The notes: a model not told the origin generated them from the sequence alone. DNA of 64,000 nt from an uncultured Gammaproteobacteria bacterium (GCA_964551135.1 CAZKAT010000003.1:1514-65513), one strand, 5' to 3'; shown: positions 2,135 to 42,228, counted from the stretch's first letter. Numbers and translations: made by a program.

Positions 2135-4513
2135 ATGAGCTTTTCCGTCAGTTCTAAATTATTATCCAAGGTTCTAGTAGAAGAAGAAAACCTAGATATC
2201 CCTTTGGTTTTGGGGAAGTTCTTAGATGAATTACAGGATAAAGTATTCTGTGAGCAAGCATTTATAATCGATAAAAACCAAGGTAAGGTTTTCACTTGCT
2301 CTAATATCAGTCCAGCAGACATAAGTTGTTCAGGACAAGGTATTGAAAAATACCTTATCGAAGACTGGGGCTACTTATATGTAGTTAAAGCTGCTAAGAA
2401 AGAAGATGCTAGGTTTTGGGATGAAGTTACTGGATCTCTGTCACTGTTCTTACATAGCGCTGAACTTAAAATTCATACTCACCTCATTAGTAATCTCACT
2501 TCTGATATAAGACGCACTCTAAGACCGGATCTAGCATTAGAGAAGATGTATCAAGCATTGAAAGAATATGCTCAATTAAGTGGTTTTTATTTCTTCAAGA
2601 AACTCATTAACACTGATGATCATGAAAATATTTTCAAAGGATATAGTCTTTATTTTAAAGCTACTCATGATGACCTTAGTAAATTTAGCGAAGAGAGAAT
2701 TTTTAACTTAGATGAGATCAAAGAATTAGGATTCATAAGTAATGATTTAGAGATAGAAGTATTCCAATCTAAGGTTAGAGGCAGAGAATGGGGTATTTTA
2801 GTTGCTACGCGCCAAGAGCCTTGGACACCGGATTTGATCGAGACTTTCGAATTATTCTCAGAGCAAATGGCAAGTGTATTTAATCAACACGAGCTACACT
2901 CAGAGAGCTTAACCATGGCACAACGAGAATTCTTGCTGAACCAGATCACCACTAAGATCAGAGAGTCATTAGTTGTCGATAAAATTATCGAAACTGCAGT
3001 CGCAGAGATAGGACAAGTAATGGGAGTAGAATCCTGCGGTATCGTAGTGCTTAATCGTAAGATCAGAGGTAGCATTGGTCACCAAACTTGGTCTATAGAA
3101 GATGATTTCTCTTCTAAGATGACAGATGCTATTTATAGTACGCTGAGAACCGAATTAGAACCCAATTGGCTAGAGCCTTCTATTCAAGCGCCACGAGGAT
3201 TTCAAGATGGTGAAGAAACAGGAACTAATGGCTGGCAATCTATATCAAGCTTAGGTTTACAATCATATCTATGTTGTGGTTTATTCAGAGACAATACTAG
3301 AGAATTAATCGGTATCCTAGCAGTAGGATTCTTCAATCAAGTACGTAACTGGACTCACGATGAACAGTTACTACTAGAGGGTGTCGCCAAACAATTAGAG
3401 ATAGCACTTATTCAAGCTTCTATCTATCAAGAAGCTCAGCAAACCAAACGCCAAATGGCACTCCTACACAGGCTTAGCAGTGATATCAGAGACAGCTTAG
3501 ATATATCTATAGTATTAGGGCAGATTGCAAGTGGCATTGGTGAAGTATTAGGACTTAACAGATGCTTCGTAAGAAGATTCTCCAATGACTCTAATGTAAT
3601 TAAGACTGAAGAAGAATATTGCTCTAAGGGCTTTGATCCAAGTGCTGATATGATGTTTAATTTCGAGCGAGAGTGGATAACTGAGCTAGCTTCAGGTGAT
3701 AGCGCGCTTAAAGCTGTGGAAGTTCTCAATATAGCTTCAGTGGCATCCAAGCTCAGTGAAGAAAGTCCAGAACTCTTAAAGATAGCTGAGGCTATTCAGC
3801 TTAAAAGTTACCTTTCTATACCCCTAGTAGCACGTGGTAAGATCCTTGGCTCAATCATAGTTCACCAGTGTGATAGAGAACGAAACTTCCTGCCCGAAGA
3901 GATAGAGTTTATATTCAGAGTTGGATCTGAAGCTGCTATCGCTATCGAGCATGCTGAGTTGTTTGATACTATAAATAAATTTAATAAGACCGATCCTGAT
4001 ACTGGACTCTATAATAAACGTTATTTTAGAGAAATAGCAATGCAAGAAATTGCTAAAGCACAAAAAAACTCCAATCCTATATCTTTCATGTTAGTCGACG
4101 TAGACTACCTTAAAGAAATCAATGATGATCCAGATCATGGTGGACACGAAGCAGGTGACGAAGCGATTCAGATACTTGCTACCGTACTCACTAACACCGT
4201 CAGGCAGACTCCTGTAGATGAAGTTAGCAAGCGCATCTCTGATGTAGTTGGAAGATTTGGTGGTGATGAGTTTATGATACTCTTGCCTAATACTCCACTA
4301 GAAGGTGCAGCCACTGTCGCCAAGCGTATTGCAGAGCACTTAGCTAAGGCTAAACATAGTACTTGGAAACGAGCTCTCACTTGCAGCATTGGGATTTCTT
4401 CTGCTCCACATGATCCTTATGACTACGAGCAACTTAAGACCCTTGCCGATAAAGCTCTCTATCTCTCTAAGCATAAGGGTAGAAATGGGTTTAGTATTAC
4501 GACTGAGTTGTAA
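2135..4513 (+). CDS. GAF-domain diguanylate cyclase (GGDEF)
   Basis: 792 aa; C-terminal RFGGDEFMILLPNT GGDEF signature; long N-terminal region consistent with tandem GAF-type sensor domains. Confidence 0.8.
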   Translation: MSFSVSSKLLSKVLVEEENLDIPLVLGKFLDELQDKVFCEQAFIIDKNQGKVFTCSNISPADISCSGQGIEKYLIEDWGYLYVVKAAKKEDARFWDEVTGSLSLFLHSAELKIHTHLISNLTSDIRRTLRPDLALEKMYQALKEYAQLSGFYFFKKLINTDDHENIFKGYSLYFKATHDDLSKFSEERIFNLDEIKELGFISNDLEIEVFQSKVRGREWGILVATRQEPWTPDLIETFELFSEQMASVFNQHELHSESLTMAQREFLLNQITTKIRESLVVDKIIETAVAEIGQVMGVESCGIVVLNRKIRGSIGHQTWSIEDDFSSKMTDAIYSTLRTELEPNWLEPSIQAPRGFQDGEETGTNGWQSISSLGLQSYLCCGLFRDNTRELIGILAVGFFNQVRNWTHDEQLLLEGVAKQLEIALIQASIYQEAQQTKRQMALLHRLSSDIRDSLDISIVLGQIASGIGEVLGLNRCFVRRFSNDSNVIKTEEEYCSKGFDPSADMMFNFEREWITELASGDSALKAVEVLNIASVASKLSEESPELLKIAEAIQLKSYLSIPLVARGKILGSIIVHQCDRERNFLPEEIEFIFRVGSEAAIAIEHAELFDTINKFNKTDPDTGLYNKRYFREIAMQEIAKAQKNSNPISFMLVDVDYLKEINDDPDHGGHEAGDEAIQILATVLTNTVRQTPVDEVSKRISDVVGRFGGDEFMILLPNTPLEGAATVAKRIAEHLAKAKHSTWKRALTCSIGISSAPHDPYDYEQLKTLADKALYLSKHKGRNGFSITTEL

Positions 4514-34191: not shown

Positions 34192-36714
34192 CTAGAGGCT
34201 AAACACTGACTTCTCTTCCGCTTCTGGAGCTATTTCTAGCTTAGGTCTATATTTTTCTATATCTGCAGGACTTGCAAGCCTATCATAACCACAACCCTTA
34301 GTATCAGAGCAGGCTACTTTATCACCACGCTTAAGAGTTTTATACATCATTAATTTATTGCATTGCGGGCAATGCTCATTGATTGGCGGATACCAGAACA
34401 CTGCATCACACTTAGTCTTAGACCAAGAGTTACAACCATAGAAAATCTTACCGAAGCGTGATTTCTTCTCAACTATCTCACCTTCACAACCTTCTTTAGG
34501 ACAATGTACACCAGTTTTCTTTTGTATAGGCGAAGTATGTTTGCAATCCTTAGTAGTACAAGCAAGGTAGTCACCATAACGTCCATAACGAATCACTAGC
34601 GAACCGTGCTTCTTACAGTCAGGACAATCTTCCTCTGCATAAGGTCTATCATCTGGAGCAGGCTTGCCTTCCTTAGTTAAATTAATAATGGTCTGACAAT
34701 CTGGATACTTAGAACAACCTAAGAAGGGTCCGAAACGAGATGACTTGAGATTCATAGTCGCACCACAACTAGGACAGTTATATTCTGTTGGTATAACAAT
34801 ATTCTCTATCTCACCTGATGCTTTCTTGACTATATCAATGAAGCCAGGGTCTAAACCTTCAGCAGGATCTTTCTCAACCTTAGCAGTCTTAGCATCTGAA
34901 TCTTCTTTTTTCTTCTTGCCGCCACGTTTAGGTTTGATCTTCTCTTTTTTCTTCCAATCTTTACCGAAATAAAATTCCTTGAGCATCACTATCCAATCTT
35001 GACCATGCTCTGCTACTGCATCTAAGCCGCTCTCCATCTGCGAAGTGAAATCTACATTAATATACTTACCAAAGTACTGTACCAATAACTCATTAACTTG
35101 CACACCGAGTCGGGTAGGTCTGAGTGCAGTACCATTCTCTACTTTCTCAACATACTTACGATCTTGAATAGTAGCAATAGTCGGTGCATAAGTAGAAGGT
35201 CTTCCTATGCCCAATTCCTCTAATACCTTCACCAAGCTTGCTTCATTGAACCTTGGTGGACCTTCAGTGAAATGTTGTTCTGGGCTAGCTTTGATCAGCT
35301 TGATTAGAGTGCCTTCTTTAATATCATCAGAGAACTTAGAATCTACTTCTTGAGCTTCCATATCCTCATTAATCTCATGACCACCATCAAATACTATTGA
35401 ATAACCTGCAAATATTTTCTTGGAGTTACTTGCTCTAAATAGCAGATCGCCCTTCTCAGATTCAATCTCCACAGTCTGTATCTCAAGCTTCATTGCCGTC
35501 ATCTGAGACGACATAAACCTCTGCCAGATTAGCTTATAGAGCTTGTATTGTTCATCAGTCAGATAGCTCTTAATTGATTCAGGAGTTTTGTCGATATAAG
35601 TAGGTCTAATCGCCTCGTGTGCATCTTGTTCGTTTGCTTTTTTGACCTTACCGTAAATATTTGGAGGATCAGGATAGTATTTATCTCCCCACTTATTAAG
35701 AATGTATTGTTTAGCTTCTGCCTGAGCTTCTTCAGCAATGCGTAAGCTATCAGTTCTCATATAGGTAATCAAACCAACTTGATCATTGCCACCAAGCTTG
35801 ACACCCTCATAAAGCCCCTGCGCTACCTGCATAGTACGTCTAACGGTAAATCCAAGCGCATTACTTGCTGCTCGCTGTAAAGTAGAAGTCTTAAAAGGAG
35901 CTTGTGATTTCTTGCTATTAGGTTTAGTAGAGATCTTAGTAACACTGAGCTTTGCAGATTTAATACGCTCAGTAATCTTATCCACTTCTGCTTTAGAACT
36001 AATCACCATCGCCTTAGTAGCATCGTAATCCTTCAGTGGGCTAACGATACGTTTAGAATCGACTTGCGCTAAAGCAACTCTAAAAGGATGATCTTTAGCA
36101 GCTTCTGTGACATCAGCATCTACTGACCAATATTCTTCAGGTATAAACTTAAGTATCTCTGCTTCTCTTTCACAAATTAATCTCACCGCAATAGACTGTA
36201 CTCTACCAGCACTACGTCCACCAATCTTGCGCCATAATAACGGACTGATCTTATAACCAACTAACCTATCCAAAATTCTTCGAGCTTGCTGAGCATCTAC
36301 CAGAGCTTGATTGATCTCCCTTGGATGCGCCACAGCACTTTTAACAGCATCAGGAGTGATTTGATTAAACGCAATTCTAGAAAACTTTTTACTCTTAATA
36401 ATCTGAGATAAATGCCACGCAATAGCTTCTCCTTCACGGTCAGGGTCGCTTGCTAGATAGATATGCTCAGCCTTCTTAGCAAACTCATTAAGCTCATCAA
36501 CAACCTTCTTCTTACCGGTCATAATCTCATAGCTTGGCTCAAAGTTATTCTTAACATCTATGCCTAAACCCTTAGCTGCAAGATCACGAATATGTCCAAC
36601 ACTTGATTTAACCAAGAAATCAGCCCCTAGTATCTTCGTAAGGGTCTTGGATTTAGCAGGTGACTCAACTATCACCAGGTATTTAAAATCTTTCTCTGAA
36701 CTTGTTTTAGCCAT
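34192..36714 (-). CDS. topA: DNA topoisomerase I
   Basis: 840 aa; N-terminal TOPRIM (LVIVESPAKSKTL), type IA topoisomerase core, C-terminal Cys4 zinc-ribbon repeats (CPSCGATM...CSKYPDC). Confidence 0.9.
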   Translation of the reverse strand: MAKTSSEKDFKYLVIVESPAKSKTLTKILGADFLVKSSVGHIRDLAAKGLGIDVKNNFEPSYEIMTGKKKVVDELNEFAKKAEHIYLASDPDREGEAIAWHLSQIIKSKKFSRIAFNQITPDAVKSAVAHPREINQALVDAQQARRILDRLVGYKISPLLWRKIGGRSAGRVQSIAVRLICEREAEILKFIPEEYWSVDADVTEAAKDHPFRVALAQVDSKRIVSPLKDYDATKAMVISSKAEVDKITERIKSAKLSVTKISTKPNSKKSQAPFKTSTLQRAASNALGFTVRRTMQVAQGLYEGVKLGGNDQVGLITYMRTDSLRIAEEAQAEAKQYILNKWGDKYYPDPPNIYGKVKKANEQDAHEAIRPTYIDKTPESIKSYLTDEQYKLYKLIWQRFMSSQMTAMKLEIQTVEIESEKGDLLFRASNSKKIFAGYSIVFDGGHEINEDMEAQEVDSKFSDDIKEGTLIKLIKASPEQHFTEGPPRFNEASLVKVLEELGIGRPSTYAPTIATIQDRKYVEKVENGTALRPTRLGVQVNELLVQYFGKYINVDFTSQMESGLDAVAEHGQDWIVMLKEFYFGKDWKKKEKIKPKRGGKKKKEDSDAKTAKVEKDPAEGLDPGFIDIVKKASGEIENIVIPTEYNCPSCGATMNLKSSRFGPFLGCSKYPDCQTIINLTKEGKPAPDDRPYAEEDCPDCKKHGSLVIRYGRYGDYLACTTKDCKHTSPIQKKTGVHCPKEGCEGEIVEKKSRFGKIFYGCNSWSKTKCDAVFWYPPINEHCPQCNKLMMYKTLKRGDKVACSDTKGCGYDRLASPADIEKYRPKLEIAPEAEEKSVFSL

Positions 36715-36929
36715 CTTGGTCTTAAATTTTAGTTGATTGATATTCCTTATATATGTTTCTAAGCAGGTCTAATATTACATAGCTATACCACAATTTTTAA
36801 AACTAGTAGAGAAATAAATTATTAATAGGTGTTTTCATTCATATTATTTATGATTATCGTAACGGAGCTATACAAATTAGATCTCAATACGCTAATATTA
36901 ATACATATTAACAGTTTAAGGAGTTGAAT

Positions 36930-37025
36930 ATGATCAAGCAATTAATCGCTGAAATCTTGGCCACAATCACTAATCTGATTCTGGGCCGAAGATATGCATA
37001 TCAAGTAGTGAAACGTAAATCCTAA
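36930..37025 (+). CDS. Candidate small hydrophobic peptide (31 aa)
   Basis: ATG 36930 preceded by AAGGAG with 6-nt spacer; encodes MIKQLIAEILATITNLILGRRYAYQVVKRKS; below the length cutoff of the supplied ORF track. Confidence 0.3.
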   Translation: MIKQLIAEILATITNLILGRRYAYQVVKRKS

Positions 37026-37057
37026 GGAGTCCGACCATAGTACCAGCTAACCTACAA

Positions 37058-37882
37058 GTGAATACAAACTCTAGGCGTGATGCTGATTATGATTTCTCAC
37101 GCCGTTCTAGAATAGATCCTATTTTCAGTCAGACACAAAAACCAAAAAGTTTCATTGCTGATAATGGTGGAAGTTTTATGGGGGATTTACACAATCCTCT
37201 CTTAGAAAACAGTATACATGCCCCTGCTAGATTAGATTACAGACCTAAATTTACTGAATATGGCTTAGATGATTTAATGCATCCAGAAACAATAGACAAA
37301 GCAAAAGACTGGACTGAAAAAATTACCGACTTCTTTAAGATCGCAGGTGATGCTACAAACAAAGTATTCTCACAACTCGGAGATATAACTAATGTTGGAA
37401 TTAATAAAACAGCAAGCAATCCTATGATCGTTACTGCTGGTGCAGCAATCGTAGGATTAATAGCTGGACTTAAAGCTGTAAAAAATATTCTCCATGGTAT
37501 TAAAGTAGCAATGGATCCTAAAAGTGATCCTAAACTAGGCTGGTTGCCACATGAGATATTAGGTATATTACAGGGTGGTTTATTCTTTGGTCTAACTTCT
37601 TCATTCTTTGGTAAGAGAAATTTCCTTACTGAATTCCAAAATGGTAAGCCAGTAGTAAAAGTCAAATCAATTATAGGAGTAGGCGTAGCTGCCCTTGGTT
37701 TAAGTGTCGCAATGGCACTCGCTAAGAGCACTTCAGTATTCCGCAAAGTTCCATTAATAGGACCTGCTATGCAAGAAATCAGTGAAACTGTATTTGGAGC
37801 AGCTAAAGAAGTAACTGTACCAACAGAAGACAATCAGAATGCTGCTGGACACGGAGCTGCTTTACCTGGAATGCCAGGCTAG
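37058..37882 (+). CDS. Hypothetical membrane protein
   Basis: 274 aa with several Gly/Ala-rich hydrophobic helices; start uncertain (GTG 37058 or ATG 37178 with GGTGGAAG upstream). Confidence 0.4.
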   Translation: MNTNSRRDADYDFSRRSRIDPIFSQTQKPKSFIADNGGSFMGDLHNPLLENSIHAPARLDYRPKFTEYGLDDLMHPETIDKAKDWTEKITDFFKIAGDATNKVFSQLGDITNVGINKTASNPMIVTAGAAIVGLIAGLKAVKNILHGIKVAMDPKSDPKLGWLPHEILGILQGGLFFGLTSSFFGKRNFLTEFQNGKPVVKVKSIIGVGVAALGLSVAMALAKSTSVFRKVPLIGPAMQEISETVFGAAKEVTVPTEDNQNAAGHGAALPGMPG

Positions 37883-39444
37883 AGTAATTTAGCAAGTATC
37901 TCATTTACCATTGCTGGCGAAGCTTTACCCTGCGTAAGTTTCATAACCTGTCCCACAAAAAACCCTTGAATCTTTGCGTTACCAGATTTATATTGTTCTA
38001 CTTGTTTTGGATTAGCAGAGATCACTTCTTTAATAACAGTCTCCAAAGCTCCTGTATCAGTAATCTGTGCTAGACCTTTATCATCAATTAACTTCTGCAC
38101 TGAACCACCATTAACCAAAAGCTCATTAATAATATCGTTCTTAGCAATATTATCCGAAATAATGCCTTGATCTATCAGTTTAATCATCTCAGCTAGTAGA
38201 GTTGCTGTAAGTTTAGTTTCTCTGATACTGAGTTTACTCTCGTTGAGGTAAGCAGCTACAGGACCTACCAACCAATTAGCAGCCTTAACAGCATTAGAGC
38301 CTATCCGCAAAGTCCCATCTGCTGCGTTACGCTCGTTCCTCGGACTACTCATTGACGTCTCAGTCAACTCCGTGTCCTCGGAACTCGCAAGCCTTGCATC
38401 TGGGAGCTTTTCGGATAGGCTCTTAATAACCTCTTCAAAATAGATCGCCGTATCCACTTCATCTGTAAGCGTAGTCGCTGTATCTTCATTAATATTAAAC
38501 TCTGCTATATATCTACTACGCTTCTGTTGCGGTAATTCTGGCAGAGAAGTTTTAGCTGTATCAATTTGCTTTTGGTTTAAAGTGAGAGGTAATAAATCTG
38601 GCTCAGGGAAATATCTATAATCATGAGCATCTTCTTTCGATCTCATAGAATGGGTTTTACCAGTGTTCTCATCGAAAAGTCTAGTCTCTTGAACCACAGT
38701 ACCAGCTTGATCTAATATTTCTGATTGACGTTTATATTCATACTCTATAGCGCGAGAAATAGATCTAAAGCTATTAACATTCTTGATCTCAGCGCGAGTA
38801 CCGAACTTCTCAGCACCAGGTTTATTCAATGAAATATTAATATCACATCTAAGCGAGCCTTCTTGCATATTGCCATCACATACTCCTATATATAGAAGTA
38901 TTTTACGCAACTCTTTCACGTAAGCCACAGCCTCATCAGCAGAACGTATATCAGGCTCTGAAACTATCTCTATAAGCGGCGTTGAAGCACGATTAAGATC
39001 TACTAGTGAATAATCTGAACCATGTAATCTCTCAGCACCTGAGTGTACTAACTTACCCGCATCTTCTTCCATGTGAATTCTTAATATGCGCACATCTTTA
39101 GAACCAATATTTAGCTTGCCATGATTACAGATAGGCTTATCGTATTGAGAGATCTGGTAACCCTTAGGTAGATCTGGATAGAAGTATTGCTTGCGATCGA
39201 ATTTAGAATTAAGATCTATCTGACAACCTAATGCTAGTCCAGCTTTAATCGCATACTCTACTGCGCGCTCATTCAATACTGGTAAAACTCCTGGATAACC
39301 CATACATACTGGGCAGGTATTCGCGTTCGGCTCTGCTCCAAACTTAGTAGAACAAGAACAAAATAACTTAGACTCAGTTCTGAGCTGAGCATGGACTTCT
39401 AGTCCGATAACGATTTGGTATTTTAATGCAGTTTCTGTTGCCAT
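37879..39444 (-). CDS. gatB: Asp-tRNA(Asn)/Glu-tRNA(Gln) amidotransferase subunit B (carries an in-frame repeat-element insertion)
   Basis: N-terminal YQIVIGLEVHAQL and CSC...CPVCMGYPG motifs; start set at ATG 39444 (MATETALKYQ...) matching canonical GatB N-termini; the track start 39522 would extend into palindromic element B. Confidence 0.9.
   Translation of the reverse strand: MATETALKYQIVIGLEVHAQLRTESKLFCSCSTKFGAEPNANTCPVCMGYPGVLPVLNERAVEYAIKAGLALGCQIDLNSKFDRKQYFYPDLPKGYQISQYDKPICNHGKLNIGSKDVRILRIHMEEDAGKLVHSGAERLHGSDYSLVDLNRASTPLIEIVSEPDIRSADEAVAYVKELRKILLYIGVCDGNMQEGSLRCDINISLNKPGAEKFGTRAEIKNVNSFRSISRAIEYEYKRQSEILDQAGTVVQETRLFDENTGKTHSMRSKEDAHDYRYFPEPDLLPLTLNQKQIDTAKTSLPELPQQKRSRYIAEFNINEDTATTLTDEVDTAIYFEEVIKSLSEKLPDARLASSEDTELTETSMSSPRNERNAADGTLRIGSNAVKAANWLVGPVAAYLNESKLSIRETKLTATLLAEMIKLIDQGIISDNIAKNDIINELLVNGGSVQKLIDDKGLAQITDTGALETVIKEVISANPKQVEQYKSGNAKIQGFFVGQVMKLTQGKASPAMVNEILAKLL
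38316..38412. repeat. Repeat element D (about 97 bp), in frame within gatB
   Basis: About 90% identical to 30692-30790 in mutS; encodes ARLASSEDTELTETSMSSPRNERNAADG, paralleling ARLASPENAELTRTSMSSSRDERNAADD in MutS. Confidence 0.8.
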
Positions 39445-41823: not shown

Positions 41824-42228
41824 GGGGGCGTATAGCTTTGACAGGGGTCAGAGATGGTAAAACGCGAGTCCAGGTAGCCTAGGTCCTGGTAAAGCCAAGG
41901 CAAAACATAAGTGTAAATGAATTTGAAGTAACTGTAGCGCAAGCTACACCTGCTGAGCGTTTCGCTCAAGCAGCTTAGTCCCGACATACTGCGGACACTT
42001 CCTCGCTGCTTAACGGCTAACCGGTTAGGATTGTGAGGCACTAAACAGGTCAGTGCATGAATCATACTTTGATAAGTTTAGTATGAGGAGTAAAGATCAT
42101 AAGCTTAGAACCCGTTGAGTGTCTATGCTCTTAAGCACGGCAACAGCTTAGATTTATAGACTACACTCGTAGTGGTTTATCGTTGAAAACTTTTGGACGC
42201 GAGGGGCAGTTCCTCGCCGCCTCCACCA
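41824..42228 (+). ncRNA. ssrA: tmRNA (transfer-messenger RNA), standard one-piece form
   Basis: 5' GGGGGCG pairs with 3' CGCCUCC (7-bp acceptor stem with G3:U70 alanine identity pair) followed by encoded ACCA; 5' GGGGGCGUAUAGCUUUGACAGGGG resembles the tmRNA tRNA-like domain; T-arm GCGAGG/CCUCGC; internal open frame ending ...AQATPAERFAQAA then UAG, consistent with an Ala-Ala-terminated tag. The overlapping 81-aa minus-strand ORF is considered spurious. Confidence 0.75.

Follow-up and report, generated by a model that had tools for sequence, protein, structure and literature searches.

A small open reading frame (sORF) of 31 sense codons and a TAA stop, at 36930..37025 on the plus strand of a 64-kb window (the whole 64,000-nucleotide stretch of DNA that was analyzed), is very probably a genuine protein-coding gene and the first of a two-gene operon. 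Its product is the peptide MIKQLIAEILATITNLILGRRYAYQVVKRKS, and the gene that follows, here called X (37037..37882, plus strand), encodes a conserved, uncharacterised, multi-pass membrane protein of 281 amino acids if translation begins at ATA 37037. The reading that is preferred here, with a probability of roughly 0.55, is that the sORF forms the leading cistron of an operon with linked translation and that the peptide it encodes would serve as a small partner or modulator of X.

The sORF is preceded by a Shine-Dalgarno (SD) sequence, AAGGAG, at 36918-36923 (plus strand), with a spacer of 6 nt (TTGAAT) to the ATG at 36930, and it ends with TAA at 37023-37025; all of these positions agree exactly with a preliminary description of the locus. 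A second AAGGAG, the SD of X, lies at 37024..37029 on the plus strand and overlaps the stop of the sORF as TAAGGAG. The surroundings of the two SD sequences form an 8-nt direct repeat, TAAGGAGT, at 36917-36924 and 37023-37030. A mechanical ORF listing carries the frame back to TTG 36924, which was disregarded as a start because it abuts the SD and because relatives keep the ATG instead. The preliminary description also placed the frame directly upstream of a membrane-protein gene, as is found; X starts only 11 nt past the sORF stop if ATA 37037 is used. It further placed the frame after topA, and this has to be corrected: topA (34192-36714) is on the minus strand, such that the 215-nt gap lies upstream of topA and is a divergent promoter region.

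The bare pattern of SD and short frame is statistically unremarkable. In 200 first-order Markov simulations of the window, AAGGAG followed after 4-9 nt by an ATG with at least 31 open codons turns up one or more times in 27% of runs, with a mean of 0.34 per window, and the reality of the sORF therefore rests on its conservation. The window itself contains eight strong-SD-type sites with an ATG, six of them AAGGAG, and only three open long genes. An AGGAG-type motif stands before the start in only about 7 of about 50 long ORFs, and the sORF and X are two among the few cistrons in the window with a strong SD. Frames of 31 and 34 codons behind a GGAGG-type motif and an ATG are also seen on the minus strand at 20500-20405 and 530-426, respectively, the first of them nested in a 1435-codon ORF (21209-16902).

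Conservation was assessed in 16 distinct related loci from genome and metagenome contigs, all belonging to one clade; two contigs identical to the window were kept apart. The relatives are labelled as Melainabacteria or Cyanobacteria bacterium, apart from L003 (CAYPGT010000064.1) and L004 (CAZELI010000021.1), which carry the label 'uncultured Gammaproteobacteria bacterium'. This label is probably wrong for both, since TopA and GatB of both share about 90% protein identity with the window's, and Melainabacteria or Cyanobacteria is the label of every other relative. On contigs of sufficient length the gene order is constant, with a divergent topA, then the sORF and X, then a convergent gatB. The topA-sORF gap of L004 (~3735-3775) and L003 (~3700-3760), otherwise AT-rich, contains a GC-rich insert, for example GGGGTTTTTCCGCCGCTTCGCGGCATTTGCGCAGCGCTCTGC, that the window lacks, perhaps a short repeat or a hairpin-forming element.

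A homologous sORF, with the same ATG behind an SD and in the same place, is found in 13 of the 16 loci, which answers the call of the preliminary description for a search of the frame in related genomes. The SD-like sequence reads AAGGAG, AGGAG, GGAG or GAGG. There are 12 distinct peptides, 11 of them of 27-32 amino acids and one of 46 amino acids after loss of the stop. The peptides include MIKQLIAEVLATITNLVLGRKYAYQVVKRK (L004), MSINYLAEEFLATIVNLVWGPKLAYQKIRTK (L003), MYIALIREILAMITNTVLGQRYAYQRSIRSN (L007), MIKQIIKEILAMVLRPNFGPLKAYAYVRN (L005), MITSLIIEILSLAMSLVWGPKYAYQVVQSK (L017), MRQSLLDNILAQIIYLIFGHQIKFAYAKVRNR (L020), MVKNLIIEILSLARSLVWAQKYSYQKVQFRY (L022), MIKQLIVEILDIISLGPRYAYQVVKRK (L023) and MIMQLILEILATIVNLVWGPSYAYQVVRHQSK (L024). 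The 64-kb window holds no second copy of the peptide.

These homologues allow a genuine gene to be weighed against a chance frame in the 5' leader of X that is conserved for some function of the DNA or RNA. Besides the 27% of simulated windows, a chance frame would be in keeping with the strong conservation, as DNA, of the 45 nt upstream and with the failure of the gene caller to call the sORF on this contig. Against it, the frame is open in all 12 distinct sequences, and every indel in it comprises whole codons, though nucleotide identity between lineages is often just 50-60%. On a gap-free 87-nt alignment of ten sequences, no stop occurs in frame 0, as against 43 and 22 in the other forward frames and 11-26 in the reverse frames. 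The mean pairwise BLOSUM62 score per site in frame 0 is 1.85, compared with 0.52 ± 0.26 for a column-shuffle null, and none of 1000 shuffles reaches 1.85. Nei-Gojobori (NG86) dN/dS values are below 1, mostly 0.2-0.7. The closest pair, the window and L004, differs only by two I/V replacements, one R/K replacement and synonymous changes. Nor does the locus show an RNA family or structure that a chance frame might be conserved for. The chance-frame explanation is thus already largely refuted, and we regard it as highly improbable.

In most pairs, the fraction of identical codons at identical amino acids is at the level found for topA, gatB and X, from which it follows that only the protein code constrains the sORF. 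The conserved residues and the substitution pattern indicate that purifying selection acts on the peptide over its whole length.

The expectation that standard ORF callers miss such a gene is borne out on the window's own contig, where the sORF is uncalled. An exact look-up of the window peptide in a collection of 15 billion proteins found it absent. Of ten further peptides looked up in this way, namely nine homologues and a 33-aa extended form of the window's own, three are present in the collection, all unnamed. No match was found between the peptide and Pfam, NCBIfam or PADLOC models, nor with the sequences of the PDB. A phmmer search with the single peptide against 1.84 billion representatives gave one clear match, the near-identical L004-type P0016. 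A second hit, P0015, is spurious, as it is an FN3-like repeat protein whose score is summed over weak repeats; the third, P0017, is a protein of 3,500 residues that came without a reported aligned stretch.

Gene callers start X at GTG 37058, which gives a protein of 274 amino acids. The frame of X opens at 37019 and contains no ATG, GTG or TTG before 37058, and ATA 37037 is situated seven bases past the SD. The start region was compared at the window site (37024-37060) and at L003-L007, L009, L013, L015, L017 and L019-L024. At all 16 of these loci, AGGAG is followed after 6-8 nt by ATA (7 loci) or ATC (9 loci) in frame with X, and never by a canonical start or ATT at that position. The stretch between the ATA or ATC and the first canonical start is homologous across lineages, with the motifs N-x-N-T and Y-D-F-x-x-R-S. 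The first canonical start is 2-82 codons into the frame in the 14 loci tabulated; it is 82 codons down in L020, 34-36 in L005 and L009 and 24 in L007, each time past conserved residues. Because conserved residues lie upstream of the first canonical start, translation would have to begin at the isoleucine codon, and X appears to start at ATA or ATC.

With such a start, automatic calls of X would be truncated at the N-terminus, by 7-82 codons where this was checked, and the N-terminus of X in the window would read (f)M-VPANLQVNTNSR. Among the long ORFs of the window, no other has an isoleucine codon with its own SD ahead of the first canonical start, so this kind of start is specific to X there. 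In L020, where the first 82 codons of X offer no canonical start, a pipeline left this N-terminal coding part uncalled and called a 48-aa gene (2793-2939, minus strand) inside it, which is very likely spurious. Fourteen homologues of X were found in public data, none of them named and none with a Pfam domain, and X itself matched nothing in Pfam, NCBIfam, PADLOC or the PDB sequences. An AlphaFold2 prediction of X with the 14-sequence alignment reached a pLDDT of 41, too low for a usable model.

A near-cognate start that is kept in one particular gene has a precedent in infC, the gene for IF3, whose AUU start is conserved across species and serves autoregulation by IF3. The likeness to X is in the isoleucine-type codon retained in a single gene. 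X differs from infC in encoding a membrane protein and in its start codon, which across the 16 loci is ATA or ATC and in no case ATT.

The sORF and X are on the same strand, separated by -1 to +28 nt, with no terminator between them and one promoter-like block upstream of the pair, and from this arrangement they seem to share one operon. In most loci the stop of the sORF overlaps the SD of X, as TAAGGAG or TAGGAG. The distance from the sORF stop to the X start is 11 nt in the window, which is also the mode; it is -1 nt in L007 (TAATC), 2 nt in L021, 9-14 nt in 11 loci and 28 nt in L004. Termination-reinitiation needs a distance of about 20 nt or less, and subunits of one complex are overrepresented among such closely spaced gene pairs (PMC10666635). 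The L004 gap exceeds the range of efficient reinitiation in E. coli. The junction resembles that of known coupled pairs in that the stop is within about 10 nt of the next start or overlaps it and the upstream gene contains the SD or ends with it, and the TAATC of L007 is an analogue of the classic TAATG overlap. It differs from the usual coupled pair in its ATA or ATC start, as opposed to ATG, GTG or TTG, and in the 28-nt gap of one lineage.

Fusion of the sORF to X by programmed frameshifting or readthrough was also considered. The offset between the two frames is +2 in most loci, +1 in L004 and L015 and 0 in L020, and this variation rules out a conserved frameshift fusion.

The block upstream of the pair was delimited by an alignment of 14 loci to 36868..36912 on the plus strand. 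It consists of a -35-like TATACA (36869-36874), shared by relatives as CTATACA; an 18-nt variable spacer; a -10-like TAATAT (36893-36898), which is TAnnAT in all relatives; and TAATACATATTAAC (36899-36912), which includes the inverted repeat TTAATA-CA-TATTAA. Only three positions of this last element vary, by one base each in the L006/L013, L007 and L015 lineages. The distance from the block to the SD is constant to within 1-2 nt in every locus, while the distance to topA ranges from about 146 to 229 nt, so the block is assigned to the plus-strand genes. It is read as a promoter because TAnnAT varies just where -10 hexamers are least conserved. A consensus promoter scan did not call it, with 8 of 12 positions matched, and a regulon search of the 64-kb window found only one good copy. 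From its conservation, the region 36868-36912 is probably a promoter followed by an operator or a conserved 5' end.

Not every lineage retains the sORF. It is found only beside X (13 of 16 loci), and X occurs alone in L006 and L013 and with a remnant in L015 and L016. In L006 (3651-3700) and L013 (2294-2340), a clean deletion leaves the upstream block and a single TAAGGAG directly ahead of an ATA-started X, which is the layout that recombination between the 8-nt TAAGGAGT repeats would yield. In L015 (2919-2975; L016 is the same), an in-frame deletion has left a 13-codon ORF, MSLSILNKILAKK, that ends in TAAGGAG. The two losses are independent of each other, and both are secondary, since neighbour-joining trees of TopA and of X nest these lineages in sORF-bearing clades. 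In these lineages X persists without the sORF or with just its remnant, and the peptide is therefore dispensable for X there.

The main rival to a functional peptide is a regulatory upstream ORF (uORF), whose translation and termination on the SD of X would tune a weak start, the peptide being secondary or acting in cis as a nascent chain. The stop of the sORF, which overlaps or abuts that SD in most loci, is placed as a uORF would require. The start of X is near-cognate and poorly used de novo, given that AUA and AUC initiate at 1-2% of the level of AUG in E. coli (10.1101/063800). The 13-codon remnant in L015 and L016 keeps the place of the start and the TAAGGAG end, as if termination at that point had been retained. 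The pattern of selection argues otherwise, as it extends over the whole length of the sORF and is not confined to the region near the stop. Arrest peptides, which keep certain residues at a set spacing from the stall site, are not matched either, because the tail varies in sequence and length, from 5-7 residues to 22 in L021. Moreover, L006 and L013 have X behind the same SD and ATA with no upstream ORF, and no structure masks the SD of X that translating ribosomes might open. Whole-length purifying selection, the variable tail and the lineages that lack the sORF together suggest that the peptide itself matters, and a purely regulatory uORF is a doubtful explanation, though one to be taken seriously.

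RNA-based explanations of the locus were rejected for want of an Rfam match, a stable fold or covarying structure. No Rfam family matches at the sORF, whether the gathering score or an E-value of up to 10 is applied; over the whole window Rfam has a single match, a tmRNA at 41824-42228 on the plus strand (RF00023, 93.6 bits). The 173-nt segment from the leader into X (36903-37075) folds no better than its shuffles (z = +0.36), and the SD of the sORF is unpaired in the centroid structure. The alignment supports just one pairing, of 4 bp (GGCC with GGCC), and this is broken where alanine is replaced by serine; it is a by-product of coding, made by the codons of a conserved alanine (GCC) and of Gly-Pro (GGC C). 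The aligned loci show no covarying RNA structure. The region 36500-38100 contains no terminator-like site, including between the sORF and X, and no promoter-like site on the minus strand, the consensus scans being weak tests.

The preliminary description had likened the frame to type I toxins and to leader peptides. As with the toxins TisB, Fst and AapA1 and the leaders TnaC, SecM and MifM, a short ORF with a strong SD is found ahead of a gene. The sORF lacks the features that define these systems, namely an antisense RNA signal, a fold that sequesters the SD, a terminator or antiterminator, and an arrest motif whose distance is fixed. A membrane peptide repressed by an antisense RNA would accord with 31 amino acids, a hydrophobic N-terminus, a basic C-terminus and the strong SD. 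The suggested search for an antisense partner, made with scans that are themselves weak, encountered no minus-strand promoter-like site, no terminator and none of the excess constraint that an antisense RNA overlapping the gene would place on synonymous sites. Nor is a stable or conserved RNA fold seen, or any sequestration of the SD. The gene is present in a single copy in the window, is joined to X in an operon and has been conserved by vertical descent at a single syntenic site. In several homologues, moreover, the sequence is too polar to form a transmembrane helix (18-residue Kyte-Doolittle maximum 0.8-1.3), and some have Arg-Pro-Asn or Arg-Pro-Asp in the middle of the 'hydrophobic' segment. 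A type I toxin is accordingly a most improbable identity for the peptide.

The comparison with leader peptides did not hold up either, in that neither a terminator or antiterminator nor a run of regulatory codons is seen and the peptide sequence itself is under purifying selection. No SD-masking or alternative structure was found between the sORF and X, where 11 nt separate the stop from the X start, and the homologues do not share an arrest motif with a constant spacing to a stall site. Regulation through translation of the sORF, by way of the stop that overlaps the next SD, is possible.

The peptide is shorter than 50 amino acids and essentially one helix; AlphaFold2, run on the single sequence, predicts a helix over residues 2-30 with a pLDDT of 92. 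Residues M1, L10 and Y24 are invariant and E8, G19 and A23 nearly so. A hydrophobic stripe on one face is made up of L5, I6, I9, L10, I13, L16 and I17, and most relatives have Gly-Pro at 19-20, which should kink the helix. The maximal Kyte-Doolittle value over 18 residues is 1.52 for the window peptide and 0.77-1.97 for the homologues; the L005 clade has Arg-Pro-Asn inside the hydrophobic segment. Hydrophobic moments range from 0.16 to 0.42. The tail that follows the A-Y motif varies in its residues and their number; the C-terminal tail has a charge of +2 to +5 and the peptide a net charge of +1 to +5. There is no signal peptide, and a tryptic fragment of the peptide would be QLIAEILATITNLILGR. 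From these properties we read the peptide as a membrane-interacting amphipathic helix, borderline transmembrane and not a clear anchor.

A cationic amphipathic peptide of this kind might instead be an independent effector whose target is not X, for example a leaderless peptide that is secreted or active on membranes, with X providing immunity or export, or it might be a modulator of some other complex. Its shortness, charge, helix and lack of a signal peptide would suit an effector, as would its location next to a multi-pass membrane protein. Bacteriocin loci are usually patchy and mobile. In each lineage the sORF-X pair is flanked by two housekeeping genes, topA and gatB, whose phylogeny it tracks, no transporter, modification or immunity genes lie nearby, and PADLOC gave no match; an effector is thus an unlikely reading.

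The operon reading, in which the peptide is a small partner of X, is set out here as a model. The sORF-X operon would be ancestral to a clade resembling Melainabacteria or Vampirovibrionia, and the promoter-like block would drive a short leader. The strong SD and ATG would then lead to efficient synthesis of a cationic peptide of 27-32 residues that begins with a helix of amphipathic to borderline-hydrophobic character, has a Gly(-Pro) hinge, and continues through the invariant Tyr of an A-Y motif into a basic tail. Ribosomes that finish the sORF would be delivered onto the start of X by short-distance translational coupling. Much peptide and little X would be made, as the ATG of the one and the weak ATA or ATC of the other imply a large excess of peptide. 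At the membrane, the peptide may partner, stabilise or modulate X, much as KdpF does with KdpABC or UgtS with UgtL. We infer the start of transcription, the coupling, the membrane association and the interaction with X; a role as small partner or modulator of X at the membrane is the most likely function, at about even odds.

Two characterized systems illustrate such a role. KdpF, of 29 amino acids, is encoded by the first gene of kdpFABC in E. coli and stabilises the complex (PMC12648545). The sORF peptide is likewise a single helix of about 30 residues whose gene opens an operon and immediately precedes that of a membrane protein. KdpF is dispensable in some lineages. Unlike the sORF peptide, KdpF is plainly hydrophobic and spans the membrane as a helix, its partner is known and its structures have been solved, and there is no sequence similarity between the two, as judged by the lack of a Pfam or NCBIfam match. 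In Salmonella, the 34-aa UgtS is bicistronic with UgtL, which it binds and modulates (PMC12648545). The pairing of a small-protein gene with a membrane-protein gene is common to both cases. UgtSL, in contrast to sORF-X, occurs only in Salmonella and is linked to PhoQ signalling; the sORF and UgtS showed no homology, and no kinase is encoded in the sORF neighbourhood.

A more specific form of the model, which is tentative and on the unlikely side, is a translational device in which the sORF, by ending on the ribosome binding site of X, would license X, through reinitiating ribosomes, at a low, fixed ratio to a peptide that binds it. If true, this would amount to a previously undescribed arrangement, namely an isoleucine-codon start conserved throughout a family and coupled to an upstream small gene. 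X would in that sense be a natural test case for how near-cognate starts and short-distance coupling set the ratios of proteins. The locus also demonstrates that comparative genomics alone can tell a true gene of 31 codons from the chance ORFs that are so numerous at this size, and it adds an unannotated small-protein family to a little-known, uncultured group that is sister to the cyanobacteria.
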